A DNA stretch of 64,000 bases from a virus (IMGVR_UViG_3300008255_000118:1-64000), one strand, 5' to 3'; counted from the stretch's first letter, positions 17,371-47,838 are shown. Numbers and translations are program-made. The notes: generated by a model not told the origin, from the letters alone.

Positions 17371-17371
17371 C

Positions 17372-18692: not shown

Positions 18693-19951
18693 TACTTCTT
18701 AACTTTATAGTTAGCTTGGGTAAACACTCTGATAAACTCAGATACTACTTGAATCTTGTTTGCTTTCTTACCATCTACCCTGTGTATGTACTCATTCAAT
18801 CTACTCTTAGCTACTCGGATCATCTCTGATATTGTGCCAGGTAAAGTTATAGTTTTTTCTCTCTCTACTACTATTTCTGGAGCTTTTTCTTCAAAATGTT
18901 TCTCTACTTGAACTGTTTGGGCAATAGTAGTGGCTCTTTTTACAATCCCTCTCTTATTCTTGAGAGTAAGAGTAATCTCTTGATTATAGTGCTCTTTCAC
19001 ATAAGATACAATCTCAGCTGCCTTCATCAAACTAAAGTCTGGGATATTACCGATTAGAGTATTATCAGATTGAGTAACATTGTCTTCTACTACCCTCTTA
19101 GTAGACTTCTTTTCTGTCTTAGACATCACCTCATCTGATTCTATTAGATCTGAAAGCTTTACAACTGAGCCCCCTTTAATTGGGGCTGTACTATAATTAG
19201 AGTACCCAATCACTTGATATTGACAAACTCTTACTTTTCTAGATTCATAGTCTACTGGTACTGAAACTACATTTACAGGGTTAACTAAAACTTTAACAAT
19301 TATATCATTATTATACCATTGTCTAACATAGTCAGGCGGTGCACAATGTAGCCCTGAAGAACAGGTTTGTTTTGGGTTATCTTGAACTTCATCTCTATTC
19401 ATTGATACAACCCTACCAATTGAGTTATCAATTTTACTAGTATGTATATCTACCAGTAATGAGCCTGCCCTCTTAACTCCCTTCTCCATAACGATATCAC
19501 CTTCCTCCGTGATAGGTATGTTATTCATGATAATGAACCTAAATAGCTGTTGTCTGCTACTAGCAGATGGATTTCGGTCTAACTTATACCAGAACTTCAA
19601 GATGGATAACATAGACTCATTATCAACACTCTCTAGTTCCATTAACTTCTTAAGAACATCTGCTGGTACATAGTTAGATGTATTTCTAAGCTTTACTCGG
19701 CCTGTATAGTCAGATGTTATTTGAACAATTTCTTGTCCGTCAATCTTAACTAGAGTCAAATAGTGATCAAAATTGTTTTCAATCTCTCTAGGCCCACTTT
19801 TCTTTTTTAGTAACTGATGAAGTTCGTTGAACTGATCAGGGTACTTGTTTTTCTTAACTACTACTATTCGTTTGTCCAATACAAGTGTAATGGTCTCTCT
19901 AGTAACTGTAGCTTTAATTCTTAGTCTCGGCAATCTCTTCTTGTTTTTCAT
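18692..19951 (-). CDS. rIIB: rIIB-like protein
   Basis: QLFRFI....IPIT..G, M.R..V.DNP..TCSSGLH, VLVNP.NVVSVP.DY...K.RVC.Y; follows rIIA. Confidence 0.85.
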   Translation of the reverse strand: MKNKKRLPRLRIKATVTRETITLVLDKRIVVVKKNKYPDQFNELHQLLKKKSGPREIENNFDHYLTLVKIDGQEIVQITSDYTGRVKLRNTSNYVPADVLKKLMELESVDNESMLSILKFWYKLDRNPSASSRQQLFRFIIMNNIPITEEGDIVMEKGVKRAGSLLVDIHTSKIDNSIGRVVSMNRDEVQDNPKQTCSSGLHCAPPDYVRQWYNNDIIVKVLVNPVNVVSVPVDYESRKVRVCQYQVIGYSNYSTAPIKGGSVVKLSDLIESDEVMSKTEKKSTKRVVEDNVTQSDNTLIGNIPDFSLMKAAEIVSYVKEHYNQEITLTLKNKRGIVKRATTIAQTVQVEKHFEEKAPEIVVEREKTITLPGTISEMIRVAKSRLNEYIHRVDGKKANKIQVVSEFIRVFTQANYKVKK

Positions 19952-22275
19952 GATAAAGTTTTTAATATTGATAGTTCTTTTACTAACTGGTCTATTCTGT
20001 CAACTGATATGTTATTATTGTTCCCTCTTATGTACTGTCTTACTAGAGGGCTTCTATTTACTTCTCTTTCTAGAATGTTCCCTATCTTGACATTAAAATT
20101 CACTCTACTGTTGAGTCTACTTCTCAACTTTCTTAGAGAGTTGATATAGTGAGATTGATAGGAGTTTAGTCCCTCTATCTTCTCTCTCTCTGAAAAGAGA
20201 AACTTTACTAACTCTATTGTTGGCTCTACCTTTAATAGGACTTTACATAGAGTCTGTACTGTGGGACTATAGAACCCTAATAATATCAAACTGTTAAGTG
20301 TCATATTGTCATGGTTTCTATAATAGAAATAGTCTCTATCTGATAGAGAGTAGAAATTGTGTTTAGCAACTAAGGATTCACTTAACAACTTCATGTCTAT
20401 ACTCCCTCGTAGACTAGACACTTTCTCTTTCTCTAATCTTTTCTTTAAGGTACTTTGATCTTTCAGACTGAAGACAGTCTCTGTTTTAAAGTATAGTTGG
20501 TGTGTCTTCTCTGACGTAACGTAGATCTTATACTTCATTTCATCTGCTATATTAATAAAAGAGCAATCACATGAGAACTCTGATAGTGAGGGTACTACAA
20601 AAGTAAGATACTTATCCCCTCTAAACTCCTTATAAGAGAGATCTTTTCTATTAACCTCTACCACTAAAGGTAAGCCTTCATAATTGAAGTGAAGAATCTT
20701 TCTCCATCTAGTTTGTACTGTTTCCCCTGGCACGTATATACCTGGTTCTACAATACTAGGGTCTAAGATTTTTTTCTCTACACTTGAGTAGTTACTAATC
20801 TCTATATCAAATGTAAAGACCATATTTGAGAAAATATCATACTGTGATGAGGACAACGGGTCCTCTATCTTTTTCCCAAAAGGCCTGATCAAATAGAATT
20901 TCTGTTTATCTGTATTATCAAAGATGGTATAGTTTCTTCTCCTATCCTTCTTACTATCTAGCAAGTAAATTGGGTATTCTGATATCTTGAGAATATTAGG
21001 GTTCTGAGTTACTTTATACTTCTCTGGGTCAGATTTATTGACCTCAATAACTTCAAAATCTTTCTTAATCTCTAGAGACTTCATAGACTTGTACTTCTCT
21101 AGAATTGACTGTAAACTAAGTCCTTTGTAGAAGATCTGTTTCAGTATATCTATCTCATCAGTGTACCTGTCAAATATTACTGACACACTACCCTCCAATG
21201 TTTGCTCAAAGAGTCTCTTTTGAAATAGAGACTGTTGTTTAGAAAATGTCGATATTACTCCTCTGACACAGTCAAGATAAGACATCTCATTAACTTGTTT
21301 TGAAAACTTCTTAATCATCAATCTAGATAGTTTGCCAAAGGCTGAATCGATTGCTTTTTTAGTTTCCTCATTATACTCAATCCCTTCTCTGGTGGCTGTA
21401 ACTGAAATATCACCAGTGTTAAACTTCAAGAATATAGCATAGCCCTCTAACCTGTTCTTCAGACTAGTGATTCTCTCTGATATTCTAGTGTCTATAGGAT
21501 ATGGTATCCCATCTACTAGACAATATACTCCACTTCGGTATGGGCTGTAGTAGTTTGTCTTTACTATGACTAATGATTCATCATCTACAATAATGTCTTT
21601 GCTATCTAAAACTTTTTGGGAGTATCTTGAAACTTCTACAAGTATGATAGACTTCCCCCAGAGCGATGTGTAATACATCACCTCATCAGCGAATGTTGCT
21701 CTATCCTCACTCTCTACTAGTGGTAGAATAATGTCAGTACCTGTTGGTTCTGTTGTTAGACTCTCTGATAGCAATATCATCTTACCAGTGCCTGAATCAT
21801 CGATTAGGGCATTATAGAAGTATTGTCTCTTCTCTCCTTTGTAGTTGATAGCTGTTGTGTTGATATAGAATGAGTCTGTGTAAGCAAATGGAGTCTTGGC
21901 TCCCAAGCCAAACCCACCTGTTTGGGCATTGGTACCTCTTTTAGTAGAGGCTGCATACTTCACAAATACATCTGCCATTCTGTTAGGGCTAATACCCATA
22001 CCTGAGTCTCTGAAGATAATACAATACTGATCTTGAAGAATCTCAGAATACTGCTGTGTAATGATGATAGAGATTGGCATGTCTGCATTCCCATTTTCCC
22101 GATTGGCATCTCTTGAATTAGATGCCACCTCTCTAACTATGGAACCTACTTTGTTTGAGTACATCTTGTCCCTAAGAATATCAAAGATGACTCCGTTTTC
22201 TTCAATAGAGAAATTCATCCCTGCTGAACTTCCAACTACGAGTGTTGGGTCTGTTTGATAAGCTGCTATTTTCAT
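19948..22275 (-). CDS. rIIA: rIIA-like protein (GHKL ATPase N-terminus)
   Basis: MYSNK..SIVREVASNSRDA, D.GMGIS, STKR.TN.QTGGFGLGAKTPFAYTDSF. Confidence 0.85.
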   Translation of the reverse strand: MKIAAYQTDPTLVVGSSAGMNFSIEENGVIFDILRDKMYSNKVGSIVREVASNSRDANRENGNADMPISIIITQQYSEILQDQYCIIFRDSGMGISPNRMADVFVKYAASTKRGTNAQTGGFGLGAKTPFAYTDSFYINTTAINYKGEKRQYFYNALIDDSGTGKMILLSESLTTEPTGTDIILPLVESEDRATFADEVMYYTSLWGKSIILVEVSRYSQKVLDSKDIIVDDESLVIVKTNYYSPYRSGVYCLVDGIPYPIDTRISERITSLKNRLEGYAIFLKFNTGDISVTATREGIEYNEETKKAIDSAFGKLSRLMIKKFSKQVNEMSYLDCVRGVISTFSKQQSLFQKRLFEQTLEGSVSVIFDRYTDEIDILKQIFYKGLSLQSILEKYKSMKSLEIKKDFEVIEVNKSDPEKYKVTQNPNILKISEYPIYLLDSKKDRRRNYTIFDNTDKQKFYLIRPFGKKIEDPLSSSQYDIFSNMVFTFDIEISNYSSVEKKILDPSIVEPGIYVPGETVQTRWRKILHFNYEGLPLVVEVNRKDLSYKEFRGDKYLTFVVPSLSEFSCDCSFINIADEMKYKIYVTSEKTHQLYFKTETVFSLKDQSTLKKRLEKEKVSSLRGSIDMKLLSESLVAKHNFYSLSDRDYFYYRNHDNMTLNSLILLGFYSPTVQTLCKVLLKVEPTIELVKFLFSEREKIEGLNSYQSHYINSLRKLRSRLNSRVNFNVKIGNILEREVNRSPLVRQYIRGNNNNISVDRIDQLVKELSILKTLS

Positions 22276-31787: not shown

Positions 31788-34700
31788 TTATATTATCTCT
31801 GTAAAGCCTTCTACTAAAAACTCATTACTACCAAAAAATTCATTGAGATACAGCTTCCCTCTTAGTATCACCAGTGCACCATCTTTAAACTTTGTCATGT
31901 CCCCTTTACCCATTGCCTCTGACCACATTCTAAATGCAATAGTAGATGAGCCTTGTTGTAGAAATCCAATACAGTAACTCTTATTTGTCTTAGTCAATTT
32001 TATCTGTACATCTACTAGTATACCTGGCAATACAAACTTCTTACCACTCTTAGTTACTTCCTTTGAAAAATCCTCCTCTAATAGAACTTCTCCCTTTATC
32101 TTAAAGTCCTCTACTAGTCGACTATAGTTAAGAAGGTTGATCTTACTAATGTCACTCTGCTTAAGAACCCAATAGTAGTCATTCTCTCTATTATTTACAT
32201 ACTCTGATGGTAGATACTGCCATTGTATTTCATCTAACTTATGTTGTAGAGAGTATAAGTCATTCCTATACTTCTCTTTAATCTCTACCACTAGCTTCTT
32301 ATCTTCTTTCTTAAGCCTAAAATCATCTCTAATGGTAAACATATACTTCTCTATCAATCTGAATCTCTCTCTAGGCTTTTTGATACTTTCAATCTCATCA
32401 AAACAACCAGAAACAATACAGTTAATCATAGAGGTTTTCTTTACTCCACTACCAACTCTTTCACAAAATTCTTCAAAGCTAAAAAATCTGCCACTTCTCT
32501 CTCTCTCTAATAGTACTGCATCCACAGCGGCTGGTCCCATATAAGCTATCTGTGTTAAGTTCCAGTAAATTGTCTGTTTCTCCACTGATGAAAAGAATTG
32601 TTTTTCTGACAAGTTAATATCTGGTGCCTTTACTTGTATTCTCCCTGAACTATTTATTTCAGAAACCATCATTGATATCTTATCTGTTTTAGCAAACTCT
32701 AATGCTACAGTCCAGAACTCTAAAGGGTAATAGAACTTTAACCAATTACACTGATACCCAATAATGGAATAAGCTGCAGCATGACTATTACAAGTTACTA
32801 CTCCCTCCTGTGTAGTAAAAGTGTGACTGGGACTATCCATTTCTACATCATACACATCCTCTCTCTCTATACTCTCAATACTCTTTATCTTAACAAGTCT
32901 AGTCCCAAGTCCCTTTTCACTAGATCTGTCTTTATCTGTGAATCTATATACAGTATCTTCCGATCTATAACCTGTATTTACAAATAAACAATCATCTAAA
33001 GTTAGATCTCTAAGTATCACTTCTCCTCTTTGTGTAGGATATTTATGATTATCTGTTGTACGAATAGTCTTCCCATCTTCAAGTGTAATTTTGAAAACTT
33101 CTCTAACTCCCTCATATCTAATATCTATGATCTTATTCTTTATAAGTACATTTTCCTTATTTAAAGAAAACCCTGTACCATAACCTCTATAGTTATAAGA
33201 CTCATGTAGTGATAGTCTACTTATTAGCTTCGCATATTTCTTATCATTCTTAATCTTATACATTTCTGCAATTGTTGGGTTAAAGGCACTACTGCCTGAG
33301 TAGTTCAAACCAACTCTATATATGCCTTCAGTACCTGAGATACATTTATTAAACCCATAAGAAGAAAACACCTCCATCTTATTCCATATCTCTACAGCTC
33401 TAGACTCTTCACAGTTATTCTTTTCTGCTCCGATTAGAAATATCTGTCTATATTCCTCCATCTTAGACTTTATCATTTTACCCATTGCTTTTCTAACACC
33501 ATCAGCTTCTACTAGGGTAAAGTTCCCTAATACTTGAGCTATCTTCATTATCTGCTCCTGATAGATATAGAGGCCATAGGTATTTGCTGTTAACTCCTGT
33601 AGTGATGGGTGATCATATACTATCTCTTCAATACCTCTTCTTAAATCAATATATCTCATATGTGTACCTGAAGCCATAACACCTGGCCTATATAGTGAAA
33701 TAGTAGCTACTAAGTCTTCTATGTGAAATGGTTGTACCAACTTTAGATAACCTGTTAACCCTTTTGTGCCAAAGTGGAACACATCTTGATTCAAACCTCT
33801 TCTAAATAAGTCAAATATACTATCATCATCTAAGGGGATATCATCAACACTGATTCTCTTACCTGTATTCTTTTCAACTAAATCAATTATGTGGCCAAAC
33901 TTAGCCATTTGTATTGTTGAAAGAATATCTACTTTCAAATAACCAATATCTGCCAATAAACCACCCTCCCACTCACTTACTAAAATATCTCCATCCATTC
34001 TTACAGGGATCTGTTTAAATAAATCTATCTGTCTCCCACTTTCATCTATTAATTTGGGAACGACAATCGTTGCACAGGCATGTATTGACATACTCTTGAT
34101 AGAGTTAATAACATACTTACAGTCTCTCACAATCTCCATATTATTCTCTACATAAAGTCGTAGTCTCTTATTAGTCATAGATTCATAGATAAGAGTTTTC
34201 CAAGTGGAGTTATCCCCCTCTAAGGTCTTTGTTACCTTATCAGCTGTTATCTCTGTTGTATTCCCATAATATCTCTCTAGTTCTTGTATTGCTCCCTTTA
34301 GCTGTAGGGTATTATATGTACCAACTCTACAAACATACTGTTGCCCATACTTGTTCTTCATATAGTCAATCACCTCATCTCTTCTATCTGAAGCAAAGTC
34401 AATATCAATATCTGGGAACTCTGACTTTATCCTGGATTCATTTAAAAATCTTTCAAAGAGTAAGTCAAAATCAAGAGGGTCAATAGCAGTTATTCCTAAT
34501 AGATAAGAAACTAGACTACCAGCTGCTGAACCACGACCAGGTCCTACTTGTATATGTTGTTCTCTACACCAATTACAAATGTCCCACAATATTAGAAAGT
34601 AGTCAATAAACCCTTGTTTAATAATATTCAATTCTCTAACTAATCTATCCCAGTGTTGTTTCTTATCTGTAGATATCTTTTTGTTAAACTTCTCTATAAG

Positions 34701-35876
34701 AAGTGCTATAAAGAGCTCATTATTAGTAGAGTACTTTAGTCTCTCTTGTTCACTCATCTCATAGCTAGGCAAGAATTTCTTAGTATCATCTATTACATAG
34801 TCACATATCTCAGAAACATAACTTAAACTCTCTATACCCCTCTTTAGTAAACTTTCATATCTAGAACTCCCAAATAGATGAATTAGTTTCATCATTAGCT
34901 CTTGTGAAGAATGAAAGTAGTGTCCTCTAGTACTGTTTTGAAAGTCCCCACCCCCTTGTTTTACCAAAATATCTTTTAAGTGGGTATGTTCAGAGTCTAA
35001 ACAGTAAGTATCGTGTATTAGTATCGGTGGTAAACTTTGCTGCCAACCTTCATTATTTAGATATTCTTGTAGACTCTCTAGATATTCTTTGTCTTTTAAA
35101 TTAGAACTATATTCTTTATCGCTTACTTGTAGAAAACAATTCTCAAAATGTGAAAGAAGAAAGTTTATAAATTCATCTGTTAGAGATAAGCCTGGCTCTG
35201 TAACACAAACTAGCCCCTTGAAATCTTGATTTATTGACTCAATCTCTATATAAGAGTACTCTCCCGTATGTAGCAACTTGTTTAAGAGTAGTAGATTTGA
35301 CCACCCTACTTGATTCTTAACATACAACTTTAAGTCTACTCTACTCCCATTCCCTGTCTCCACAGGTAAGGAGTACCCCGAAACAGGTCTAATTCCCTTT
35401 TTCTTACAAGCCTTTTGAAACTGTAGAATACCTCCAAGTGTACCCTTTTCACAAATCCCTAGAGTCTTGTACCCTAAAAACTTAGCTTTTTCTACCCAGT
35501 CAGGATACTCTCCAACGCCACACATTCTCTCATACCTGCCATGTATGCCTAAATAAGAATCAAAATACACCTGTTGTGAACAAGTTCCAATATACTTTAA
35601 CTCTTCTAGATCTACATGTGCTAAAGAGTCTGCTCTGGTATAAAGATACCAAGGGCCAAGTTTAAAGATAATCCCATATAAACTGTCTAAGGACTCTAAA
35701 ACTATATCCAACAATTCACTGTTGAATACTAATGACAACTCTCCATTATCATTTAATACGGGTTTTTCAACATCATGAAAGTAAAATAGTTTACCGTCTA
35801 TGTCAATCAGTCTCCCTTCTTCTTTATATCTGAAAAGATTTGTATGAAGGTATCTTTTTAGGCTCTGGTCTATCAT
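31788..35876 (-). CDS. dnaE: DNA polymerase III alpha subunit (family C) with intein
   Basis: PHP-like N-terminus, GPGRGSAAGSLVSYLLGIT, FERFLN, PDIDIDF, YGFNK/SHAAAY split by an intein. Confidence 0.95.
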   Translation of the reverse strand: MIDQSLKRYLHTNLFRYKEEGRLIDIDGKLFYFHDVEKPVLNDNGELSLVFNSELLDIVLESLDSLYGIIFKLGPWYLYTRADSLAHVDLEELKYIGTCSQQVYFDSYLGIHGRYERMCGVGEYPDWVEKAKFLGYKTLGICEKGTLGGILQFQKACKKKGIRPVSGYSLPVETGNGSRVDLKLYVKNQVGWSNLLLLNKLLHTGEYSYIEIESINQDFKGLVCVTEPGLSLTDEFINFLLSHFENCFLQVSDKEYSSNLKDKEYLESLQEYLNNEGWQQSLPPILIHDTYCLDSEHTHLKDILVKQGGGDFQNSTRGHYFHSSQELMMKLIHLFGSSRYESLLKRGIESLSYVSEICDYVIDDTKKFLPSYEMSEQERLKYSTNNELFIALLIEKFNKKISTDKKQHWDRLVRELNIIKQGFIDYFLILWDICNWCREQHIQVGPGRGSAAGSLVSYLLGITAIDPLDFDLLFERFLNESRIKSEFPDIDIDFASDRRDEVIDYMKNKYGQQYVCRVGTYNTLQLKGAIQELERYYGNTTEITADKVTKTLEGDNSTWKTLIYESMTNKRLRLYVENNMEIVRDCKYVINSIKSMSIHACATIVVPKLIDESGRQIDLFKQIPVRMDGDILVSEWEGGLLADIGYLKVDILSTIQMAKFGHIIDLVEKNTGKRISVDDIPLDDDSIFDLFRRGLNQDVFHFGTKGLTGYLKLVQPFHIEDLVATISLYRPGVMASGTHMRYIDLRRGIEEIVYDHPSLQELTANTYGLYIYQEQIMKIAQVLGNFTLVEADGVRKAMGKMIKSKMEEYRQIFLIGAEKNNCEESRAVEIWNKMEVFSSYGFNKCISGTEGIYRVGLNYSGSSAFNPTIAEMYKIKNDKKYAKLISRLSLHESYNYRGYGTGFSLNKENVLIKNKIIDIRYEGVREVFKITLEDGKTIRTTDNHKYPTQRGEVILRDLTLDDCLFVNTGYRSEDTVYRFTDKDRSSEKGLGTRLVKIKSIESIEREDVYDVEMDSPSHTFTTQEGVVTCNSHAAAYSIIGYQCNWLKFYYPLEFWTVALEFAKTDKISMMVSEINSSGRIQVKAPDINLSEKQFFSSVEKQTIYWNLTQIAYMGPAAVDAVLLERERSGRFFSFEEFCERVGSGVKKTSMINCIVSGCFDEIESIKKPRERFRLIEKYMFTIRDDFRLKKEDKKLVVEIKEKYRNDLYSLQHKLDEIQWQYLPSEYVNNRENDYYWVLKQSDISKINLLNYSRLVEDFKIKGEVLLEEDFSKEVTKSGKKFVLPGILVDVQIKLTKTNKSYCIGFLQQGSSTIAFRMWSEAMGKGDMTKFKDGALVILRGKLYLNEFFGSNEFLVEGFTEII
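32787..33344 (-). mobile_element. mini-intein in DnaE (186 aa, no endonuclease domain)
   Basis: GFNK|CISG...TTDNH (block B)...VYDVEM...VVTCN|SHA. Confidence 0.9.
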
Positions 35877-36078
35877 CTCTATTCTTTCTACTCTTTGGCA
35901 AGTCTATGTATACATAGACTTCATTTTCTACTATAAATTCTCTAAGTTTACAGAAGATATTATCACTATACTCTTTACTCCAATTATCAAACCAAGAGGA
36001 ATACACTTTATAGAATTCACTCTTTGTCATTATACAACAGTCTAAAAATAACTGTTTATCACTTATGATTAAGCTCAT
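35824..36078 (-). CDS. hypothetical protein
   Basis: 84 aa ORF between folE and dnaE. Confidence 0.5.
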   Translation of the reverse strand: MSLIISDKQLFLDCCIMTKSEFYKVYSSWFDNWSKEYSDNIFCKLREFIVENEVYVYIDLPKSRKNRDDRPEPKKIPSYKSFQI

Positions 36079-36388
36079 CTATACACAGATTAGTAAACTT
36101 TATTAACTGTCTGTTTAGAAGAAGTGAGGTTTTATAGAAATAAGACTTGGTCTCTCTTCTCCTACCAAATCTGTAAATAATAGCATACTCATCTCTATCT
36201 ACTTTAATATTTCTGACATTGATTGATCTCTTTTCTATTGAGAATCTTAGATTTTGAAAAAGGAAACAGTCATGACTAATTCTTACAGCCCTTTTAGGGC
36301 CTCTTTCTAGTCTAGTATCATCTACTAAGTCTTCTAAGCTGGTTCTAATTATCTCACAAAATTGTGAGACATCTACTTGTTTTTTCAT
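36059..36388 (-). CDS. hypothetical protein
   Basis: 109 aa ORF directly downstream of folE. Confidence 0.55.
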   Translation of the reverse strand: MKKQVDVSQFCEIIRTSLEDLVDDTRLERGPKRAVRISHDCFLFQNLRFSIEKRSINVRNIKVDRDEYAIIYRFGRRRETKSYFYKTSLLLNRQLIKFTNLCIDELNHK

Positions 36389-36403
36389 AAGGGAAAGCTG
36401 TCT

Positions 36404-37156
36404 CTATTTCTTTAAATTTAATAAAGTGTAAAACTCTTCTCTGGTTTTCTGATCATCATAAAACTCCTTACTCAAAACTTGAGTAGCAGTATCACTACTT
36501 TCGTCCTTTACTCCCCTACAAGCTACACACATATGTTCTGCCTCTACCACAACAGCTACTCCCTTATTCCCTTTAGCTACTGAATCTAGATAATCATGTA
36601 TCTCCTGTGTTATGTTCTCTTGTACTGTTGGCTTTCGAGAAATATAGTCTACCACTCTATTAAACTTAGATAACCCTATCACTGTTTCTCCAGGAAGATA
36701 CCCTATATGAGCTCTTCCTGTAAATGGTAGATTGTGATGGGCACACATTGAATTAACTTTAATCCCTCTAACAACTACCATCCCTCTATACTTCCCATCA
36801 TTCTCAAAGTCAGTTACTTTTGGCGGATCTGAAAAGTCACTTCTTGCTAAGTCTTCTACCCATGCCCTAGCAACTCTTCTTGGGGTATCTGCCATATGTG
36901 GGCTCTTAGTCCAGTCATACCCTAGTACTCTTAAAAACTCGCCATAACATCTAGAGGCTAGATCAATAATTAACTCATTTGGCATTTCTGCAAAGCCTCT
37001 TATTGGGTTACCATACCTATCTAGTTCAATATCTACTATCTTAACATCATCAGGCAATGGCAGATCAGTCTCTGATAAGATCCACCCACTAGTTTCTGAC
37101 TCCCATTGATTTGTTGTGGTCATTGACCATATCTGATACACTTTTAGTTTTCTCAT
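36404..37156 (-). CDS. folE: GTP cyclohydrolase I
   Basis: DTPRRVA, SMCAHHNLPF.G, IGLSKFNR, VQE.IT, HMCVACRGV. Confidence 0.95.
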   Translation of the reverse strand: MRKLKVYQIWSMTTTNQWESETSGWILSETDLPLPDDVKIVDIELDRYGNPIRGFAEMPNELIIDLASRCYGEFLRVLGYDWTKSPHMADTPRRVARAWVEDLARSDFSDPPKVTDFENDGKYRGMVVVRGIKVNSMCAHHNLPFTGRAHIGYLPGETVIGLSKFNRVVDYISRKPTVQENITQEIHDYLDSVAKGNKGVAVVVEAEHMCVACRGVKDESSDTATQVLSKEFYDDQKTREEFYTLLNLKK

Positions 37157-37157
37157 C

Positions 37158-37925
37158 TTAAACTCCCCTTTTATTATTATAGGCTATAATATGTAATCTT
37201 TCTGTATAGTTATAGCCTTTGGCTACACAGTACTCCATTAATTTAACTCTCTTTGGTTCTAGTTCTTCTCTAGTCCCACCTGCTGGCATTAGATAGACAC
37301 TCTCTTTTCCTACCTCTAGAAACTCTAAAAGCTCTAAAAGCTCTAAAAGCTCTCTAGTTTCATCTAAAGTAGAAATTACTGGCTTAATCTGAAAACTATC
37401 ATGATAGTGTATCATCTCTTTCATCACGTGCCATTTCTTTCTATACTTTTCATGCTTAGTAATGTCTTTCCTAGTTACATCTCTACCTAATGGAGTAACT
37501 GTCCCTACTCTTGGCTTTGAGTTTCTAAACTTAGGGGATAGACTAATCATATCAGCTACTGTAGGAACAAATGCTGAACCTTCAGTTTCTATTGTAATAT
37601 AGTGTCCATAAGTCTTAGCTAAAAGACATAACTCTTGTAAAAGTTCTGGGTGCATAGTTGGAGAGCCCCCAGTTATCATTGTATGTCTAATATGCTCATT
37701 CTTTCTAAACATGTTCTCTATAACCTCTAAACTAATTGTTCCCTTCATTGGGTGCCAAGAGGTGTACCAAGAATCACAGAAATCAGTATCACTGAATTGA
37801 CATCTTAATACACAACCCGTAGTTCTTATAAGAATATGTGGTACTCCCATTAATTTGCCCTCTCCTTGTAAACAAGTATATAGCTCCTGTATTGGCTGTA
37901 TTTTACTATAGTCCATAAATTGCAC
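37158..37925 (-). CDS. queE: 7-carboxy-7-deazaguanine synthase (radical SAM)
   Basis: LQGEG, RTTGC.LRC.....FCDS, ITGGSP, ITIETEGS, SLSPK. Confidence 0.9.
   Translation of the reverse strand: MQFMDYSKIQPIQELYTCLQGEGKLMGVPHILIRTTGCVLRCQFSDTDFCDSWYTSWHPMKGTISLEVIENMFRKNEHIRHTMITGGSPTMHPELLQELCLLAKTYGHYITIETEGSAFVPTVADMISLSPKFRNSKPRVGTVTPLGRDVTRKDITKHEKYRKKWHVMKEMIHYHDSFQIKPVISTLDETRELLELLELLEFLEVGKESVYLMPAGGTREELEPKRVKLMEYCVAKGYNYTERLHIIAYNNKRGV
37323..37349. repeat. 9-bp in-frame tandem repeat x3
   Basis: ctctaaaag x3 giving LELLELLEL in QueE. Confidence 0.85.
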
Positions 37926-38469
37926 TTGTTTTAGGGGTTTCTTTGAATTCTACAGAAGTAACAGTCACTCCAAGTGGGAACATTTTCTTTTTAACTTCCT
38001 CGTATAACCATGCTGAGATATTCTCAGAAGTTGGTACAAAGTTTACAACTACTAAGCCTTCATAGATCTCTTGTACTGCTAAGGGCTCACTTTCATATAT
38101 TGAAGGGCTTAGATTAAGAAATGCCTTACTTCCCATATCATTCATAAACATATTACTTCTGTAATCATCTATCCTCTTTTCAGTAATTAAAGGGTATACA
38201 TATGATATAACTGGGTCATTGATATCCATTATCATCTTATGATCTAGAGTATCATCCACCCATTTCTTAAACCAACCTAGATGCTTGAAGTCAGTTACCA
38301 TACCATCTGTTAAGTAGTCTGCCTCTAATTTAATAATAACTTGGCCCTGATGCCCATGTAAGTGACGACAGACTAAACAGGTATCAACTGCATAGTCTGG
38401 GTTTAGTTTCTGGTTGTGTACTCTATGACCATAACAGAAATCAAAACTCTTTGTAATATTATGCTTCAT
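37906..38469 (-). CDS. queD: 6-carboxytetrahydropterin synthase
   Basis: F.YGHRV, CRHLHGH, MVTDF, LDHK, PTSEN, ETPKTSA. Confidence 0.93.
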   Translation of the reverse strand: MKHNITKSFDFCYGHRVHNQKLNPDYAVDTCLVCRHLHGHQGQVIIKLEADYLTDGMVTDFKHLGWFKKWVDDTLDHKMIMDINDPVISYVYPLITEKRIDDYRSNMFMNDMGSKAFLNLSPSIYESEPLAVQEIYEGLVVVNFVPTSENISAWLYEEVKKKMFPLGVTVTSVEFKETPKTSAIYGL

Positions 38470-39298
38470 TTCTAGAGTCGTTATTCATTAATATTTGATT
38501 TACACAAGCTGTAACATAGTCCCAATCCCTCTTTACTAAACCACTATCAGTCTTCTCTGCATATGGTGTTGGGTCTGCCCTATTTAGTTTCATGAAAGCC
38601 TCTACTCTCTCTACTGAAGATGCTGAAAAGAAATCTGAATACCACTTACCCGTAGCTGGGTCTTGTAATGGCTTATACGAAGTCATTGTTCTCTTATAAA
38701 CCTCATCAAAATCTAAGCCTAGAGTTTTACAACTTATCTCTCCATCTAATAGTATATCACCTTTATCTAACTCTAGATATGGAGTATAGTAAGATACATT
38801 TTCTGCATCCCAGTTGCCTAAGAGAAAAGCATGGTAATCAGCATCTCTGAATTCTTTACGACAATCAGGGTACACAGTAGCATCTCCACTATGTATTCCC
38901 ATTGCAATTGCTACTGGTGAACCAGTTTCTTGACTCCAAGATAAAGCTACTGCTTGTATAATAGAAGAAAATATTTTGTTCCTATTTGGCACCACAGTCA
39001 TTTTCATATTCTCCTGTTCATAGTGTCCTTCAGGCACTTCACTACCACCAGATACTAGAGATGAAGAAGTCAACAGATGCCCAATATCTAGACTTACAAT
39101 ATCATGTGAGATGATACCTTTAGTATTCAAGTTCAAAAACTCCACAAGGGATTTAGCTTTTTCAAGTTCTACAGAATGTTTTTGACCATAGTTAAATGAT
39201 AACAGTTTTACATCATACTCTCTTGCTAGTAAATGTACTAACAATGAACTACTGTCCATACCCCCTGATAATGACAGAACAACTCTCTTTTTACTCAT
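38459..39298 (-). CDS. queC: 7-cyano-7-deazaguanine synthase
   Basis: SLSGGMDS, FNYGQKH, VVPNRN, YPDCR, TMTSY. Confidence 0.93.
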   Translation of the reverse strand: MSKKRVVLSLSGGMDSSSLLVHLLAREYDVKLLSFNYGQKHSVELEKAKSLVEFLNLNTKGIISHDIVSLDIGHLLTSSSLVSGGSEVPEGHYEQENMKMTVVPNRNKIFSSIIQAVALSWSQETGSPVAIAMGIHSGDATVYPDCRKEFRDADYHAFLLGNWDAENVSYYTPYLELDKGDILLDGEISCKTLGLDFDEVYKRTMTSYKPLQDPATGKWYSDFFSASSVERVEAFMKLNRADPTPYAEKTDSGLVKRDWDYVTACVNQILMNNDSRNEA

Positions 39299-39405
39299 CT
39301 TTATTTATTTTTACTTTTATTAATTTAAACTCTCTAAACTCTATACTTCCACACCTAATTTAATAGTTGTTGGTCTGAGACTACACTTCAAATGTAATCT
39401 ACACA

Positions 39406-40326
39406 CTACTGCCCTAGTGTCTTTGTAGTCAAAATATTGACATCTATTAATTCTTTTGGTATTAAATCAAGTCTTGTAGAACGTACAGGGGTAATATCAA
39501 GAGACCCTCTTCTAGAATATAGTAGTGCTATCATACACTCATCTACTAGTTCTTGTTTGGTCATATCTATAAATAGTTTCTCACAACAAAACTCATGAAA
39601 CTCATCTAACATTCTTATTGAAACTACTTTCTTGAATAACTCAGTATAGTTTAGAAACATCATCCCTTTAAATAGGCCGAAGAAAGTACCAGTGTCTTTT
39701 TGTTTGGTATATCTACATCTAGATCTTAATATGTTTGTCTGTACTGTGGAGGTTGTATACAGTGGTGCTGGGAGAGCAATACTATAGTCTCTCTTAGCTG
39801 TATAGTCATCAAAGTCAGACAGTTTTGATATATTGATTGAATCCTCTAGATAGTTGTACTGTAACAGTGTGTTTGCTGATAGTCTATCATGATATTGATG
39901 AAAAGCTACATTAACATCTACCCCTAGTAACTTTGATAAATCTTGTTTAATCTGATTTTCATAGTTCATTTTAGCAAATAATAATGACTTGCCCATCTTA
40001 CACATATCAAATGTATTTAGATACAGTTTCATCGACTTTGATTCTACTATCCCTACACTATATGATGGGTAAACAAACTTTAGTGTACCAGCTATAGGAA
40101 AACCATTGTCTAGTAAGAATGTTGCTTCATGACAGTTCCATATGTCATATCCTTGGAACTCATTCCCCGTAATACCCCAGTCACCTCGTGCCTCTGCTCT
40201 AGGCATCATTACCAATAAAGAAGAATCAAAGTGATCTGTTTGTGTTTCATAGCTTCCAGAAGACCCTAGGTGTTTTGAAGCTATCTTATTAGTTTCCGAT
40301 TCGGAAATACTTCTCTCTTTTTTCAT
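39406..40326 (-). CDS. queF: NADPH-dependent preQ0 reductase, bimodular type
   Basis: QueF motif VESKSMKLYL, catalytic SRC, FHE, YSRRGSLDI.P.R. Confidence 0.9.
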   Translation of the reverse strand: MKKERSISESETNKIASKHLGSSGSYETQTDHFDSSLLVMMPRAEARGDWGITGNEFQGYDIWNCHEATFLLDNGFPIAGTLKFVYPSYSVGIVESKSMKLYLNTFDMCKMGKSLLFAKMNYENQIKQDLSKLLGVDVNVAFHQYHDRLSANTLLQYNYLEDSINISKLSDFDDYTAKRDYSIALPAPLYTTSTVQTNILRSRCRYTKQKDTGTFFGLFKGMMFLNYTELFKKVVSIRMLDEFHEFCCEKLFIDMTKQELVDECMIALLYSRRGSLDITPVRSTRLDLIPKELIDVNILTTKTLGQ

Positions 40327-40344
40327 ACTTTTAAAAATATTCTA

Positions 40345-40375
40345 TAAAATTATAAAATTTATACTTATCATCAAA
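40345..40375 (-). promoter_or_regulatory. promoter with embedded palindrome (copy 5), upstream of queF
   Basis: TTTG-N19-TAATTTTA; shares tataaaatttatacttatcatcaaactt (28 nt) with copy 1. Confidence 0.75.
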
Positions 40376-40393
40376 CTTATAATTAAGTTTTTT

Positions 40394-40672
40394 TTATAAT
40401 AAATCTCTATTTTTTAATTTCTGGAGATTGTCCTCTATAACCTCTTCTAGAGTAATCCCATAGTTTTCACCAATTGCTGAAATACACCAAAGTAGATCAC
40501 CGAGTTCACTCTTAAGATCTCTCTGTACTGTTCTGCCATCTACTTTCCTTATAATCTCTTTTGCAACCTCTCCAGTTTCCTCTGTTAGTTTTGCTAAAAG
40601 ATATAGTTCAGGGTTAGATGAGTATTTCTTTACCTTAGTTACTGTCTTTTGATATTCATTTATGTTTGTCAT
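40394..40672 (-). CDS. MazG-like nucleotide pyrophosphohydrolase
   Basis: KLTEETGEVA...ELGDLLW.....................NL.KL..R. Confidence 0.85.
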   Translation of the reverse strand: MTNINEYQKTVTKVKKYSSNPELYLLAKLTEETGEVAKEIIRKVDGRTVQRDLKSELGDLLWCISAIGENYGITLEEVIEDNLQKLKNRDLL

Positions 40673-40674
40673 AT

Positions 40675-41307
40675 CTATAGAATTATTCTACCACTGCTTA
40701 TCTCCTTCTTGTCACTCAGTCTTATTATCTTACTTTTTATTTTAGGTGCTAAGTCCTCTCTAACATCACCGAATACAGTATTCATAATAAATTCAATATT
40801 CTCCTCTAAGTCGGCAGAGGGCAAAGTAAAACATCTCTTCCCTAAGTTAGGGACTAAGTTTTGTGATAATATAAGATCAATAGCTAATCTAAAAGTCTCA
40901 TCTGTATCTCTTGTGCCATCTTTTTCTATAGGGGCTTTGATTGGGGCGTAGAAGATAAAGTCATACTCATGTAAGAAGCCTGCTGTCATTTGCCCAAACA
41001 ATTCTAGAGTTTCACTTGACACTTGATCTTTACTATGTAAAAACTGAGTATAGGCTAAACCATCCACTAGACATCTATCAGCTAATAAATTTGTTTTTAG
41101 TAAGTCTTTCATGTGAAAGGTTAGAACAAGCTCCTGTGTTATATTAAAGTCTTCACTCTTACCACAATTAATAGGTAGTCCCTTATCCTTAAGAGCTCTT
41201 GTGTTTGAATAAGAAACATGATAGTTCTCAAACTGTGGCTTCATGGCCAAACGATTGATTAATGTTGTCTTTCCAGTACTATGTGTACCTGTTAATACTA
41301 CTTTCAT
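40675..41307 (-). CDS. P-loop nucleotide kinase-like ATPase (AAA_28/NadR-like)
   Basis: VLTGTHSTGKTTL, DRCLVDGLAY, YDFIFY.P, DG.R. Confidence 0.75.
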   Translation of the reverse strand: MKVVLTGTHSTGKTTLINRLAMKPQFENYHVSYSNTRALKDKGLPINCGKSEDFNITQELVLTFHMKDLLKTNLLADRCLVDGLAYTQFLHSKDQVSSETLELFGQMTAGFLHEYDFIFYAPIKAPIEKDGTRDTDETFRLAIDLILSQNLVPNLGKRCFTLPSADLEENIEFIMNTVFGDVREDLAPKIKSKIIRLSDKKEISSGRIIL

Positions 41308-41311
41308 ATGT

Positions 41312-42106
41312 TTACAGTTTTACTAGTTTTCTAAAATATTTTGTATTCTTTAACACCAAGTGATACTGCTCAACTGTCATATCACACTTGATTAATTCAA
41401 ATAGTTTTGTTTTTGGCTTTTCAAGTAGTGGGATATAGTGCTCATAGTCTTTATTATCTAAGGACATCATAATTGGATTTGAGGTATCTAGAGATGTCAA
41501 GAAACTATATCTATCATCTCTATAGAAACTAAATTCTAGCGGGAGTGCACAGCCCAATAAGTGGTGTTCTACTTCATAGTCTATTATCTCTTCTTCTATC
41601 AGATAATTAATTAGGGCTACCCTGCCGAAAGCCCAAGATACTAATTTATTTGAATGGGGGAAGATTCTCTCATATAGAGAATAGTCAAACGGTATGGCAA
41701 CTCTCTCTATCCCTAATCTAATTAACTTCTCATAGCATTCAATTATCTCTAACACGGTTCTACCCTGTACTACCCCAATCTTTTCACTCTTAATATCTCT
41801 ATAGGTTCTTATCCACTTAGAGGCACTCCTTATAGTCCCTTTCATATCCTCTAGAACGTCAGGGATAATATATGACGTTGGCTTCAGTTGTTCTATCCAG
41901 TAAGCAAATCTTTCAGGACTAAAAGAAACTCCCAGTTCAAATATTGAATTATCAAGTAGAACTTCTCTTCCCATCTCTACAGACTTTTGAAAAAACTCAT
42001 AATATTTGGGATACTCTTCAAATAAATGTACTAGTGCATAGTCGTAATCATTGAATTTTCTGGATTCATCCAATAGACATATTGGTGATTCATGTGATAT
42101 TCTCAT
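41312..42106 (-). CDS. dpdA: TGT-fold transglycosylase, DpdA-like
   Basis: LLDNSIFE, IIPDV, IGVVQG, HHLLGC, SLDTS align with TGT/DpdA catalytic segments; no C-terminal Zn motif; next to the que genes. Confidence 0.7.
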   Translation of the reverse strand: MRISHESPICLLDESRKFNDYDYALVHLFEEYPKYYEFFQKSVEMGREVLLDNSIFELGVSFSPERFAYWIEQLKPTSYIIPDVLEDMKGTIRSASKWIRTYRDIKSEKIGVVQGRTVLEIIECYEKLIRLGIERVAIPFDYSLYERIFPHSNKLVSWAFGRVALINYLIEEEIIDYEVEHHLLGCALPLEFSFYRDDRYSFLTSLDTSNPIMMSLDNKDYEHYIPLLEKPKTKLFELIKCDMTVEQYHLVLKNTKYFRKLVKL

Positions 42107-42152: not shown

Positions 42153-42641
42153 CTACAAAATTCTCATTACTCTTTTTAATGGTACAAGTAAAAACTTTTT
42201 CTTATCTCTTACTCTAACTGATAGAAGTGGGAGTTCATTCATCACCATAGAATTGTCAGCTATGTACCCAATAGAGTTAGAGCTATCTTCATTCTGTATT
42301 CTCACTTCAGAATCTCTATTGTAAAAGAATACTCTATCCCACTTCTCCAACTTGTCTTTCTGTGCTGAATCTCTATAACAAAATACTGGTTCTCCCCATT
42401 CAGGTATTATCCCTGAAAAGACTCTAAGGTATTCATCTTTACTACTAAAAATAGTTTCCAGTCTATTCTTACTACCAATATCTTCGATCTTCTTCTTTTT
42501 GCCTAACATTGCATTCTCCCAATAAGGAACATACTTTTTTTGAAAAATCTTTGTTCTGATTTCTGCACAGATATACTCCTTCTGTAGATTTTCAAAGAAC
42601 TCAAAGATAGATAAGTTCCTAGATGATTGGCTATTCTTCAT
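42153..42641 (-). CDS. hypothetical protein
   Basis: 162 aa ORF directly after primase. Confidence 0.6.
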   Translation of the reverse strand: MKNSQSSRNLSIFEFFENLQKEYICAEIRTKIFQKKYVPYWENAMLGKKKKIEDIGSKNRLETIFSSKDEYLRVFSGIIPEWGEPVFCYRDSAQKDKLEKWDRVFFYNRDSEVRIQNEDSSNSIGYIADNSMVMNELPLLSVRVRDKKKFLLVPLKRVMRIL

Positions 42642-45045: not shown

Positions 45046-47838
45046 CTATAAATAACTAAAACTAAACTCCATCTTATCACCTAGTAATGCTCTACATAAG
45101 TTCCATAGTGACATTGAAGTATCATCATGTTGTGTTAAGCTCTCTAGTTTACCTGTCTGTTGTATAAAAGAGATACTATTTAATTCTGAGAAATATAAGT
45201 CTGTCATAGCTTTAGCTTTCTTTGACTTATAAGGAAATCTCATTTTATTAGTTTCAAAAAATACTGCCATTCTTGGAACTCCTAAATATAATGATTTTTT
45301 GTTAGCTCCTGTAGTTTTACCTACCACAGGTAAGTTTTCATCTTTCATCATTTGTACAAATATCTCCTGAAAGTTGTTGTTCTCAACAAACATAATATCA
45401 GGAGAAAAGTCTCTATCAATCTTCTTAAGAACAGCCATTTGTTCAGAGTAGTTAGCACCCTGTCTCCTCCAACAATTAAAAATGTGAATTTTATTAAACT
45501 TATCTAGTCCGCCTACAGTAAAGACACTATAATCTGATCCCACATTACCCGAGATAGCAAAATCACAACCTACTGCTATCTTCAAGTAGTCATCCCTATT
45601 AATATTATCAATGTTAGAGATAATCTCTCTATCTTCTCCACCCTTAATAGCTTTGTTTAGAATAGAGTAGGGAAAGATAGTCGAATCATCAGAAATAGGT
45701 TTTACTAGTATCTCTCTGGAGAATATCAAAGACCCTAAGACTTCTTTCTTCTCCATAAGAGACTTATAGCTATGTCTTTCCGGGAAAAGTAACTTACCAT
45801 CGGGGAAGATAGCTGGGTACTCAAACATCTTAAATATGTTTGTTTGTCTTAGACGATAGTAGAGATCTTTCTCAAAGAAAGGGGTACCAACAGCTATTAG
45901 TTGCCCTGATGGAGACAAGGCTGGTAAAACTACTCCTGAAAAAATATTCCAATACTTATCTCTTTGATCTTGTGAGTAGATAGATGAATCATTCAAAAAG
46001 TCATCTAGTACTATCCAAGTAGGGTGGTACCCCCTTATTTTAGAATTAGCAGATTTAATTACCAAACTTGAACCATTCTTACACTCTATATGGTCAGAGC
46101 CCCAAGTACTCTCTCTACCTATTGGCTTAAGCCTCTCTTTTAGTATATCATTAGAGTCTATCTCAGTTTGTATGATATCCATTAAGTGTCTAGCTAACCC
46201 ATACTCATTTGTAATAAGCATCCCTTCTCTAGCCATAGAGAGATCTCTACTCTTATTACTCTCATAATTTAGCATAAGTTTCTGATTCTCTTTAATAGGC
46301 TGATATCTATACATCTGCCATAAAGGGTAGGCATAGCTAAAATGATAAGAATTATGAGTAACAGTACCATCGCCTAAGACAAATCTGTTGTCCCCATCTA
46401 CAGCAATAGATATATATTCTCCTTCTTCTAGCTCTTCTATATCTAAAGTTGATACATTTGAGATATCATAATTCACACTATCACCAGTATAGACCTTTGG
46501 CCTTCTAAACATTGAGTTTGATAACTCTGTATCTTTTATCCTCTTTCTATCTAATAATACTGGTAAATCTAGTAGTTTTTCACCACATATCTTAAGCCTG
46601 ATTGACTCAAACTTCCTCCCACTTTTCGTAAAACTACTCCATTCACTCTTTCTAACACAGTGTAAACCTAATGTATAGCATAGATTCTCTATATCATCTA
46701 TTAGTCTACTATGTTTTACACTCTGTGTGATGATTAGTTGATTATCTTCAACACTACCATCAGAATCAGCTAACCCTGCTAGAACTCCCATTCTGACTTC
46801 AACTGAATTAAGTATAAAGTCTTCAGGGATATATTTTTCACTGGTTAGATCATATTTCTTAAACAGTGAATTAATTGGATTCTTTCTACCTCTAGTACCA
46901 CTTAAGTATCTAGCACACTGATCTTCCCTAGTCTTTAGATCTAAGCCTAATTCTCCCCCATATGTAGTTAAGTAGCCAACAATCTTCTTATCTACTGTGC
47001 TAATCTCTTGAGGGATACTCTGTGTACCATCTCCTAACCATAACCCTAAATAATAGGGATCTAGATATATTTTCTTATATGGCAGTGAGAGGCAAACTTT
47101 GTACCCTTTATGTAGATTCTTAAAGTCTCTGGGTGAATTGATAAAATCTTTGATTTCTACATCTATAAGCTCTGGCACTCTGCTAGAGGGATTTACTCTC
47201 CCATCTGGAGTTCTCCACTTTCTATATAGTGATAGTATATGCCTACTATTAACTGTATAAGAGTTTCCTCTAGATTGGTTCACTCTATACATTTTGTCTC
47301 TCCCTCTATAAGCTCCTATAACTTTTCTAGATACTGAATCAGGGCCCATAAGTAGATCTCCAATCCTAATTTCACCAGCTAGTTTTATAGTGCCATCTCC
47401 CATTCTCACTGAAGTTTCTCCTGAAATCGACTTACCATGGTCCCTTGCCGCCAAGACCCCTAAAAGCCTATATATTTGTAATAGATTACTCCACTCCAGA
47501 TTATGCCAACCTAGAATAAAGTCAGGCAATAGAGATGATATAAAGTAGTTCAACAACTTACATCTAAGTGTCTCCTCTACACTTTCTGTTAAGCCAGATA
47601 CATAAGTAAATGAAGTTGAATCAAGAATTTTATTCTGAGTAGTTACTATATCAAAAGTTTCTTTGAATATCTGTTGAATAACTTTATCTATATCTGATTC
47701 TTGACCGCCTGATAGCCCTAGAATAGCTTTTTCATCTAAGAGATCTACAATATCTTCTACAAGACTCATAGTTTCTCTTAATTGCTTAATGGGGACAGCT
47801 TTATCTTTTGAATTAGCAAATAGGGAGTCTATTATCAT
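45046..47838 (-). CDS. terL: terminase large subunit with intein
   Basis: AARDHGK Walker A, WIVLDD Walker B, VGTPF, GCDFA...SDYS, ENNNFQ, HDD..MSLW nuclease motif. Confidence 0.92.
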   Translation of the reverse strand: MIIDSLFANSKDKAVPIKQLRETMSLVEDIVDLLDEKAILGLSGGQESDIDKVIQQIFKETFDIVTTQNKILDSTSFTYVSGLTESVEETLRCKLLNYFISSLLPDFILGWHNLEWSNLLQIYRLLGVLAARDHGKSISGETSVRMGDGTIKLAGEIRIGDLLMGPDSVSRKVIGAYRGRDKMYRVNQSRGNSYTVNSRHILSLYRKWRTPDGRVNPSSRVPELIDVEIKDFINSPRDFKNLHKGYKVCLSLPYKKIYLDPYYLGLWLGDGTQSIPQEISTVDKKIVGYLTTYGGELGLDLKTREDQCARYLSGTRGRKNPINSLFKKYDLTSEKYIPEDFILNSVEVRMGVLAGLADSDGSVEDNQLIITQSVKHSRLIDDIENLCYTLGLHCVRKSEWSSFTKSGRKFESIRLKICGEKLLDLPVLLDRKRIKDTELSNSMFRRPKVYTGDSVNYDISNVSTLDIEELEEGEYISIAVDGDNRFVLGDGTVTHNSYHFSYAYPLWQMYRYQPIKENQKLMLNYESNKSRDLSMAREGMLITNEYGLARHLMDIIQTEIDSNDILKERLKPIGRESTWGSDHIECKNGSSLVIKSANSKIRGYHPTWIVLDDFLNDSSIYSQDQRDKYWNIFSGVVLPALSPSGQLIAVGTPFFEKDLYYRLRQTNIFKMFEYPAIFPDGKLLFPERHSYKSLMEKKEVLGSLIFSREILVKPISDDSTIFPYSILNKAIKGGEDREIISNIDNINRDDYLKIAVGCDFAISGNVGSDYSVFTVGGLDKFNKIHIFNCWRRQGANYSEQMAVLKKIDRDFSPDIMFVENNNFQEIFVQMMKDENLPVVGKTTGANKKSLYLGVPRMAVFFETNKMRFPYKSKKAKAMTDLYFSELNSISFIQQTGKLESLTQHDDTSMSLWNLCRALLGDKMEFSFSYL
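46351..47430 (-). mobile_element. LAGLIDADG intein in TerL (360 aa, Ser1)
   Basis: HGK|SISG...VNSRH...LGLWLGDG...LAGLADSDG...VTHN|SYH. Confidence 0.9.

Follow-up and report, generated by a model that had tools for sequence, protein, structure and literature searches.

A minimal DpdA3-type preQ1 module in an uncultured phage and a possible nucleotide-pool route to guanine replacement

Gene content of the module

The IMG/VR virus record IMGVR_UViG_3300008255_000118 represents an uncultured phage and comprises 88,332 bp, with a CheckV completeness of 64%. Its first 64 kb, called the window throughout, carry nearly all of their genes on the minus strand. At 31788-42106 of that strand, genes for the synthesis of the modified base 7-aminomethyl-7-deazaguanine (preQ1) lie beside a gene for a guanine transglycosylase-like protein of the DpdA3 family. 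Read against the coordinates, the order is DpdA3-family protein, AAA_28 kinase, MazG, QueF, QueC, QueD, QueE, FolE, two small open reading frames (ORFs) and DnaE, and the eight module genes form one tight run. Each gene named in an initial annotation of the window was found again by family searches, in the same minus-strand order. The absence of queA and of a tRNA-type tRNA-guanine transglycosylase (TGT), noted there for the window, extends to the whole record: the canonical TGT family PF01702 had no match in six frames of the 88 kb, and no QueA was found in them. A megablast of the locus against phage records returned no match.

All genes for preQ1 synthesis are on the minus strand and score above the curated family cut-offs. 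They are FolE, a GTP cyclohydrolase I (36404-37156; PF01227, 178 bits); QueE, a radical S-adenosylmethionine (radical-SAM) 7-carboxy-7-deazaguanine synthase (37158-37925; PF04055, 36 bits; phrog_2076, E 2e-44); QueD, a 6-carboxytetrahydropterin synthase (37906-38469; PF01242, 90 bits; phrog_2389); QueC, a 7-cyano-7-deazaguanine (preQ0) synthase (38459-39298; PF06508, 127 bits); and QueF, a bimodular preQ0 reductase (39406-40326; PF14819 (QueF_N), 74 bits). The QueF sequence shows both ESKSMKLY, the NADPH motif, and RSRC...Q.D.G, which contains the catalytic Cys. Judging from families and motifs, FolE, QueD, QueE and QueC would convert GTP to preQ0, which QueF would reduce to preQ1.

The 264-aa protein encoded at 41312-42106 (-), described at first only as a TGT-like enzyme, could be placed in DpdA3, a family tied to complete replacement of guanine (G) (PMC10516641). 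The assignment as a minimal TGT-fold TIM barrel draws on phrog_19058, an AlphaFold2 (AF2) model and homology; the protein has no Pfam match, and a profile search against PDB sequences gave nothing relevant. In tblastn comparisons it is 48% identical to the DpdA of Flavobacterium phage immuto over 98% of its length (4e-71) and 39% identical to the protein of the group of Campylobacter phage CP220 (6e-38), and a hidden Markov model (HMM) of the DpdA3 family finds CGPG_00065 of Cellulophaga phage phiST at 5e-16. Because of the identities to immuto and CP220, the locus is, by sequence, a member of the published DpdA3 class, and we consider its identity as a DpdA3-type preQ1 module very probable. 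The family is large: one search returned 3,683 proteins, and a second gave 1,659 representative clusters.

An AF2 model built on 29 homologues reached a predicted local distance difference test (pLDDT) score of 93. In Foldseek its top matches were all tRNA-guanine transglycosylases, at probability 1.0. In VIA-align the archaeosine TGT 1iq8 and DpdA (7ui4), the insertase of preQ0 into DNA, both scored Z 18.0, and bacterial TGT scored Z 17.8; superposition on 1iq8 and 7ui4 had a root-mean-square deviation of 3.0-3.2 over 230-232 residues. The residues D52/F56, D83, L183-184 and D207 are invariant in the DpdA3 homologues. Their spacing and motifs match those of the catalytic and binding residues of DpdA and TGT named in PMC10164549: a general acid, a stacking Phe, a base-binding Asp, a Leu and the nucleophile. 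The motifs LDNSIFE and PDVLED align with GDSGAFS and LDVIGD of DpdA2, at an hhalign probability of only 23%, and SLDTS corresponds to SVDSS of DpdA2. Retention of the catalytic aspartates is supported by this assignment, which was made by motif and not by residue-level structural superposition.

Compared with the bacterial DpdA/DpdB system and phage DpdA1 and DpdA2, which insert preQ0 post-replicatively, the protein has the same TGT-type barrel (Z 18.0 to 7ui4) and the same Asp/Phe/Asp/Asp active-site pattern. It is, however, only 264 aa long against 385-413 aa, and it is without a Pfam TGT match, a zinc site or Ins8, the large insertion that forms the DNA-binding surface. The zinc motif CxCxxC is present in 0 of 251 DpdA3 family members, and the cysteines of the window protein are at positions 10, 124, 186 and 241. 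There is no room for an insertion the size of Ins8, because the chain ends 57 residues after the putative nucleophile D207. Natural fusions join DpdA3 to a DpdN-type formyltransferase (P0162, P0184), to QueF (P0272, P0273) and to homing-endonuclease or DUF3310 pieces, while in P0271 an intein with a LAGLIDADG endonuclease interrupts DpdA3. A Rosetta-stone search of 273 family proteins found no fusion to the kinase, and a complex prediction of DpdA3 with the kinase (score 0.04, mark 0.32) counts neither way.

Directly beside DpdA3, 40675-41307 (-) encodes a 210-aa P-loop nucleoside/nucleotide kinase of the AAA_28 family (PF13521, 61 bits; phrog_2107, 'thymidylate kinase'), whose Walker A motif is GTHSTGKTT. 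A profile search of PDB sequences led to the ribosylnicotinamide kinase (RNK) domain of NadR (1.5e-5), to deoxynucleoside kinase (dNK) and to thymidylate kinase (TMPK), and Foldseek matched the AF2 model (pLDDT 86) to dNK, TMPK and NadR at probability 1.0, with template modelling (TM) scores of 0.5-0.6. Sequence and model thus agree on a predicted fold of the dNK/TMPK/NadR-RNK type; we propose that the kinase phosphorylates a (deoxy)nucleoside or nucleotide of 7-deazaguanine. The next gene, at 40394-40672 (-), encodes a 92-aa nucleoside triphosphate (NTP) pyrophosphohydrolase of the MazG type (PF03819, 49.5 bits, cut-off 22), in which the metal-binding motif EExxE...ExxD is present as EETGE...ELGD. 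Orthologues of this MazG occur in the nearest relatives of the locus among the IMG/VR loci surveyed below, L090, L091, L002 and L038. MazG enzymes release monophosphates, not nucleosides.

DpdA3 loci in other phages

In the phages on which DpdA3 was founded all G is replaced, by the formyl-preQ1 deoxynucleoside fdPreQ1 in immuto, by dADG in CP220 and by dDG in phiST (PMC10516641). The initial annotation had mentioned near-complete replacement of G in a Flavobacterium phage with a divergent DpdA; this phage is immuto, but its base is formyl-preQ1 and not preQ1. The immuto locus resembles that of the window in DpdA3 (48% identical) and QueC (57%), in the same set of FolE, QueD, QueE and QueC with QueF, in a PRA-PH/MazG-superfamily all-alpha NTP pyrophosphohydrolase that precedes DpdA3, and in an AAA_28 kinase, which there follows DpdN. 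It differs in that the window is without DpdN and phosphoribosyltransferase, has a canonical MazG where immuto has the PRA-PH-like hydrolase, has DnaE instead of a family A polymerase, keeps its genes in one tight run, and is predicted to make plain preQ1 rather than formyl-preQ1.

The replication module of the record is syntenic with that of phiST, and several proteins are shared: UvsX (42% identical), an SbcD-like protein, DnaE (36%), FolE (41%), QueE (47%) and MazG (31%). Both phages also have the MazG - kinase - DpdA3 arrangement beside the polymerase. In phiST the order is a tandem MazG with two MazG domains (CGPG_00068), DpdL, the P-loop kinase CGPG_00066 and DpdA3 (CGPG_00065). CGPG_00066 (159 aa; L088:16382-16861) is listed as of unknown function and without homologues in other 7-deazaguanine phages (PMC10516641); in our searches it scores 29.8 bits with the P-loop kinase family PF13238 (cut-off 29.4) and matches AAA_33 weakly. 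There are also differences from the window. With DpdA3 and DpdL, phiST makes dDG (PMC10516641): its pathway stops at 7-carboxy-7-deazaguanine (CDG), which it decarboxylates, and it has neither QueC nor QueF. Its DpdA3 is only 26% identical to that of the window, the phiST kinase comes from a different P-loop family (AAA_18), and MazG is present as a tandem.

CP220, a dADG phage (Crippen et al. 2019, cited through PMC10516641), has a DpdA3 that is 39% identical to the window protein, with an AAA_28 kinase directly downstream. Its DpdA3, gp056, lies between gp055, a fusion of an HD-domain hydrolase with an AAA_33 kinase-like domain, and the AAA_28 kinase gp057. CP220 differs from the window phage in being a T4-like myovirus with scattered que genes and the amide product ADG.

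The ORFs of immuto, the window and 80 IMG/VR loci were clustered; counts were made by available flank, with 61 loci for the kinase and DpdN and 36 loci, having 5 kb on both sides, for the hydrolase. The conserved core of the related loci is DpdA3, an optional formyltransferase, the kinase and QueF. The kinase lies no more than 1.3 kb downstream of DpdA3 in 60/61 loci, which represent 52 distinct DpdA3 sequences, and QueF is present in all 52 of the 52 loci with enough flank. This pairing does not depend on the neighbouring polymerase, which may be DnaE (family C), family B or family A. Co-occurrence of kinase and MazG with this clade of DpdA, suggested initially as a check, is clear for the kinase, given also CP220 and phiST, and partial for the hydrolase, which was recognized in only 23/36 loci. 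Another group of loci has a dCTP-deaminase/dUTPase-fold protein inside the que cluster, which may fill the hydrolase part. Two clusters of small proteins conserved beside the module in large groups of related phages had no family name: c18 (145 aa; L004:9570-10004), which about 20 loci have directly upstream of DpdA3, and c16 (115 aa; L012:13131-13484), after QueF in the group with family-B polymerase. ESM Atlas placed c18 and c16 only in unnamed viral clusters. In hhalign the small clusters c18, c16 and c13 gave no signal with MazG, a test of low power that also failed to link MazG with PRA-PH.

A search of 50,697 phage records found the kinase family in Campylobacter and immuto phages. It was absent from all QueC-positive phages of the Mycobacterium, Cellulophaga phiSM-type, Bacillus, Arthrobacter, Gordonia and Escherichia groups, which have DpdA1 or DpdA2 and partial G modification. 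The DpdA loci of Rosebush and phiSM likewise have no kinase. This control rests on the phage-record searches, because single DpdA2 queries of IMG/VR, made as a negative control, returned only 2 loci and 0 loci. The DpdA3 phages thus differ from those with DpdA1/2 in two respects: complete replacement in the tested phages, against at most ~30%, and a kinase neighbour that the DpdA1/2 loci are without.

The clade of the window is distinguished by the tailoring genes. A DpdN-type formyltransferase (PF00551) occurs in 56/61 related loci and is missing only in the DnaE-bearing clade that includes the window; in the 88-kb record neither a DpdN HMM nor PF00551 had a match. When the L061 and L038 proteins of the DpdM-like type served as tblastn queries, the record gave no match, and no phosphoribosyltransferase was found in the 88 kb. 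The nearest relative, L091 (DpdA3 66% identical), has the same set of enzymes plus two homing endonucleases, at 8794-9558 between DpdA3 and kinase and at 11459-12094 between QueF and QueC. L092, from a different sample, has an identical DpdA3, and its kinase is broken into two ORFs (9563-10191) by a frameshift or an assembly error. Other members have a CxxCxxCC protein (PF03692, YkgJ/DpdM-like) within the module (L090:12328-12987, L061:8128-8799, L038:8784-9413), which suggests that they are methyl-preQ1 variants. L090 and L038 also share a 314-325 aa protein in the module with no assigned function. Since the record has neither DpdN nor a DpdM-like gene, the predicted base of the window phage is plain dPreQ1, which would be positively charged. 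The preQ1 clade without tailoring genes and the overlooked kinase of phiST are new in this analysis.

Measured levels of dPreQ1 are ~1% of G in phiSM and 30% in HVTV-1; in immuto it was expected, none was detected and fdPreQ1 was found instead (PMC10516641). Another explanation would be that the window phage modifies its DNA sparsely or not at all, using preQ1 for low-level marking, as in the DpdA2 phage phiSM, or for host or phage tRNA. Depletion of G-containing palindromes in the record (GATC 0.56, CATG 0.62 and GGCC 0.61 of expectation) would fit such a state, but fully modified phages are similarly depleted, CATG being at 0.55 in phiST, 0.07 in CP220 and 0.58 in immuto. The protein is, moreover, a DpdA3 and not a DpdA1/2, all three tested DpdA3 phages being fully modified (PMC10516641), and the record has no tRNA-type TGT or QueA, so that we regard this explanation as very improbable. 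Palindrome avoidance was also considered as a proxy for full modification and was rejected; it does not discriminate, because phages known to be fully modified deplete CATG, GATC and GTAC alike. CCGG stands at 0.41 of Markov expectation in the 88-kb record, and GATC is depleted more strongly in the record than in the phiST, CP220 and immuto stretches that were sampled.

Routes to guanine replacement

We favour a route at the level of the nucleotide pool, before replication. MazG would hydrolyze dGTP to dGMP, emptying the dGTP pool and supplying substrate; DpdA3 would exchange guanine for preQ1 on the free deoxyguanosine nucleotide, or possibly the nucleoside; the adjacent kinase would phosphorylate the product, and host enzymes would complete the path to d(preQ1)TP; finally the phage polymerase, with no special one needed, would incorporate d(preQ1)TP, giving near-complete replacement of G. 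Taken whole, a DpdA3-type module with such a pre-replicative route to near-complete replacement by plain preQ1 is a proposal to which we give an even chance. Tentatively, and with slightly more doubt than belief, we go further: DpdA3 would be the first enzyme of the TGT superfamily whose base exchange takes place on free deoxyguanosine or its nucleotides and not on a polymer, it would form with the kinase and a dGTP-clearing hydrolase the third pre-replicative pathway of whole-base replacement, after T4 hydroxymethylcytosine (hmC) and the Z genome, and nearly every G in this clade would be cationic preQ1. Reports of dPreQ1 have so far been limited to about 1% to 30% of G. A pool-level route for DpdA3 was not found as a proposal in the literature searched.

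In the T4 hmC and Z-genome systems, a pyrophosphatase or triphosphohydrolase clears the canonical deoxynucleoside triphosphate (dNTP) and feeds an enzyme that acts at the monophosphate level; kinases and then the polymerase follow, and replacement is complete. The likeness of the module to these systems (PurZ/MazZ/DatZ in the latter) is functional and not by family, and lies in the layout of hydrolase, monophosphate-level enzyme and kinase. The difference is that the modifier in the window would be a base exchanger of the TGT fold and not a homologue of thymidylate synthase or PurA, and the steps assigned to DpdA3 are proposals.

The comparative data bear on this route in several ways. Immuto, CP220 and phiST, all with measured full replacement, have DpdA3 beside a P-loop kinase and a (d)NTP hydrolase, as does the window. 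The families of hydrolase and kinase vary among the DpdA3 lineages by non-orthologous replacement, and types that are not orthologous from lineage to lineage indicate a conserved function. Expression of DpdA3 by itself left DNA in E. coli unmodified (PMC10516641). In CP220-infected cells the ADG nucleoside was present in the cytoplasm, according to what is cited of that work in PMC10516641. The pool-level reading of the initial annotation thus gains from the DpdA3 assignment, the kinase pairing and the hydrolase company in characterized lineages; its selective DnaE finds no support. The DnaE-type DNA polymerase III alpha at 31788-35876 (-) has 1362 aa (phrog_405, E 4e-201) and is 36% identical to the polymerase region of phiST; its orthologues in L090 and L091 have PHP, DNA_pol3_alpha, finger and HHH_6 domains. 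Elsewhere among the DpdA3 phages, the polymerase that neighbours the module is of family B, family A or the T4 type. Polymerases generally use 7-deaza-dGTPs substituted at C7 well. A special role of DnaE is unsupported, because the module accompanies three polymerase families and polymerases generally accept 7-deaza-dGTP analogues, and we treat the gene as a neighbour whose membership in the modification system is unsupported.

Several points weigh against the pool route. To our knowledge, all characterized enzymes of the TGT superfamily (bacterial, archaeal and eukaryotic TGT, bacterial DpdA, phage DpdA1/2) act on a polynucleotide and none on a mononucleotide. A recognizable dNTP hydrolase is present in only 23 of the 36 loci with both flanks, and L061, a 16-kb contig, has DpdA3 and QueF with neither kinase nor MazG. 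The AAA_28 kinase family is found in 89 Streptomyces phages without DpdA3, and the kinase could therefore be a general deoxynucleoside monophosphate (dNMP) kinase. With the record incomplete, a tailoring enzyme could lie in its missing part. Insertion after replication is what the paper defining DpdA3 proposes (PMC10516641). Two features that might have told the routes apart were rejected: absence of the zinc site or Ins8, since the DNA-acting phage DpdA2 is also without the zinc motif, and acidic isoelectric point (pI) as a sign of a protein that does not bind DNA, DpdA3 having a median pI of 5.4 but the DpdA of phiSM being acidic too. In the Streptomyces phages (StarPlatinum and 88 other BE-cluster records; L083:7210-8621), the AAA_28 kinase directly follows a methyltransferase of the FkbM type, with DnaE and MazG a few kb away, an arrangement that may be another nucleotide-level DNA modification module.

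The published model, in which DpdA3 swaps every G in newly made phage DNA, is a substantial alternative that we nevertheless judge somewhat doubtful. Under it the kinase and MazG would be support enzymes or chance neighbours: they could feed FolE by returning released guanine or GMP to GTP, or keep dGTP low so that repair synthesis does not re-insert G, or they might be ordinary nucleotide-metabolism genes that happen to lie nearby. DpdA3 has the fold and catalytic aspartates of enzymes that act on polynucleotides (PMC10164549), the phosphoribosyltransferase found in 18 related loci fits guanine salvage, and L061 and the Streptomyces kinases are readily accommodated. Fusions of DpdA3 to QueF or to the formyltransferase fit a free-base substrate and are compatible with either model. 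This explanation leaves without a reason, however, the pairing with a kinase in nearly all loci and in three unrelated characterized lineages, and its absence from the partly modifying DpdA1/2 phages, as well as the alternation of hydrolases of four different folds beside DpdA3. The lack of modification by DpdA3 alone in E. coli also speaks against it. Bacterial DpdA requires large insertions and an ATPase partner to act on double-stranded DNA (PMC10164549), while the 264-aa DpdA3 cannot house Ins8.

A pre-replicative route could also run at another level, through deoxyguanosine and a deoxynucleoside kinase, or through GMP/GDP followed by the phage ribonucleotide reductase. The nearest solved relatives of the kinase are nucleoside kinases (the ribosylnicotinamide kinase domain of NadR and deoxynucleoside kinases), although thymidylate kinases score about equally. 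The HD hydrolase of CP220, fused to a second kinase domain, fits a conversion of dGTP to deoxyguanosine and then two kinase steps, but MazG enzymes, by what is known of the family, give monophosphates and not nucleosides. As for the second variant, the large ribonucleotide reductase subunit is encoded in the window at 12677-15190 (-), but nothing indicates that the reductase accepts a 7-deazaguanine nucleotide. We consider these variants unlikely, and exchange on the deoxyguanosine nucleotide, with MazG and the kinase around it, remains the route that we favour.

Neighbouring features and significance of the module

Between folE and dnaE, 35824-36388 (-) holds two small ORFs of 109 aa and 84 aa that have no family match. 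They are 38% and 63% identical, respectively, to ORFs at the same position in L090 and L091, and on account of this positional conservation are probably real genes. Another conserved ORF without a family match, of 162 aa (42153-42641, -), lies between the primase and DpdA3; its homologues take the same position in L090 (61%), L061, L002 and L038.

An AT-rich spacer of 67 nt separates mazG and queF (40327-40393, -) and contains an imperfect inverted repeat, with 15-nt arms at 40348-40362 and 40370-40384 that are 80% complementary. It is a possible internal promoter, and the word TAAGTTTG in it resembles by eye, as a conjecture only, the Bacteroidota -7 element. A sigma-70 promoter scan of the region gave 47 sites against 48.8 in shuffled sequence, which is no excess. 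The palindromic promoter of the initial annotation is thus reduced to a weak, imperfect repeat with sigma-70 sites at chance level.

Further from the module, a minus-strand stretch of nucleotide-metabolism genes upstream (10295-17409) includes, besides the reductase, a long thymidylate-synthase-like protein of 376 aa and a phrog_335 'phosphatase' (16831-17409, -), and rIIA/rIIB-like genes are present at 18692-22275. Within the replication module there is a 930-aa protein similar to the terminase large subunit (45046-47838, -). Its 929-aa orthologue in L091 has homing-endonuclease/intein (Hom_end) matches, so that the gene in the window probably contains an intein.

The locus is a new minimal version of a published system: it has no formyl or methyl tailoring gene and no salvage enzyme, and its eight genes are in one run, which makes it a convenient set for reconstitution. 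Should the pool route be wrong, the locus is one more member of a described family. If it is right, the TGT superfamily would gain a new type of reaction, and the three-enzyme route from preQ1 and dGTP to C7-aminomethyl-7-deaza-dGTP would be useful for the enzymatic production of functionalisable DNA. It would also explain why replacement of G in these phages reaches 100%.

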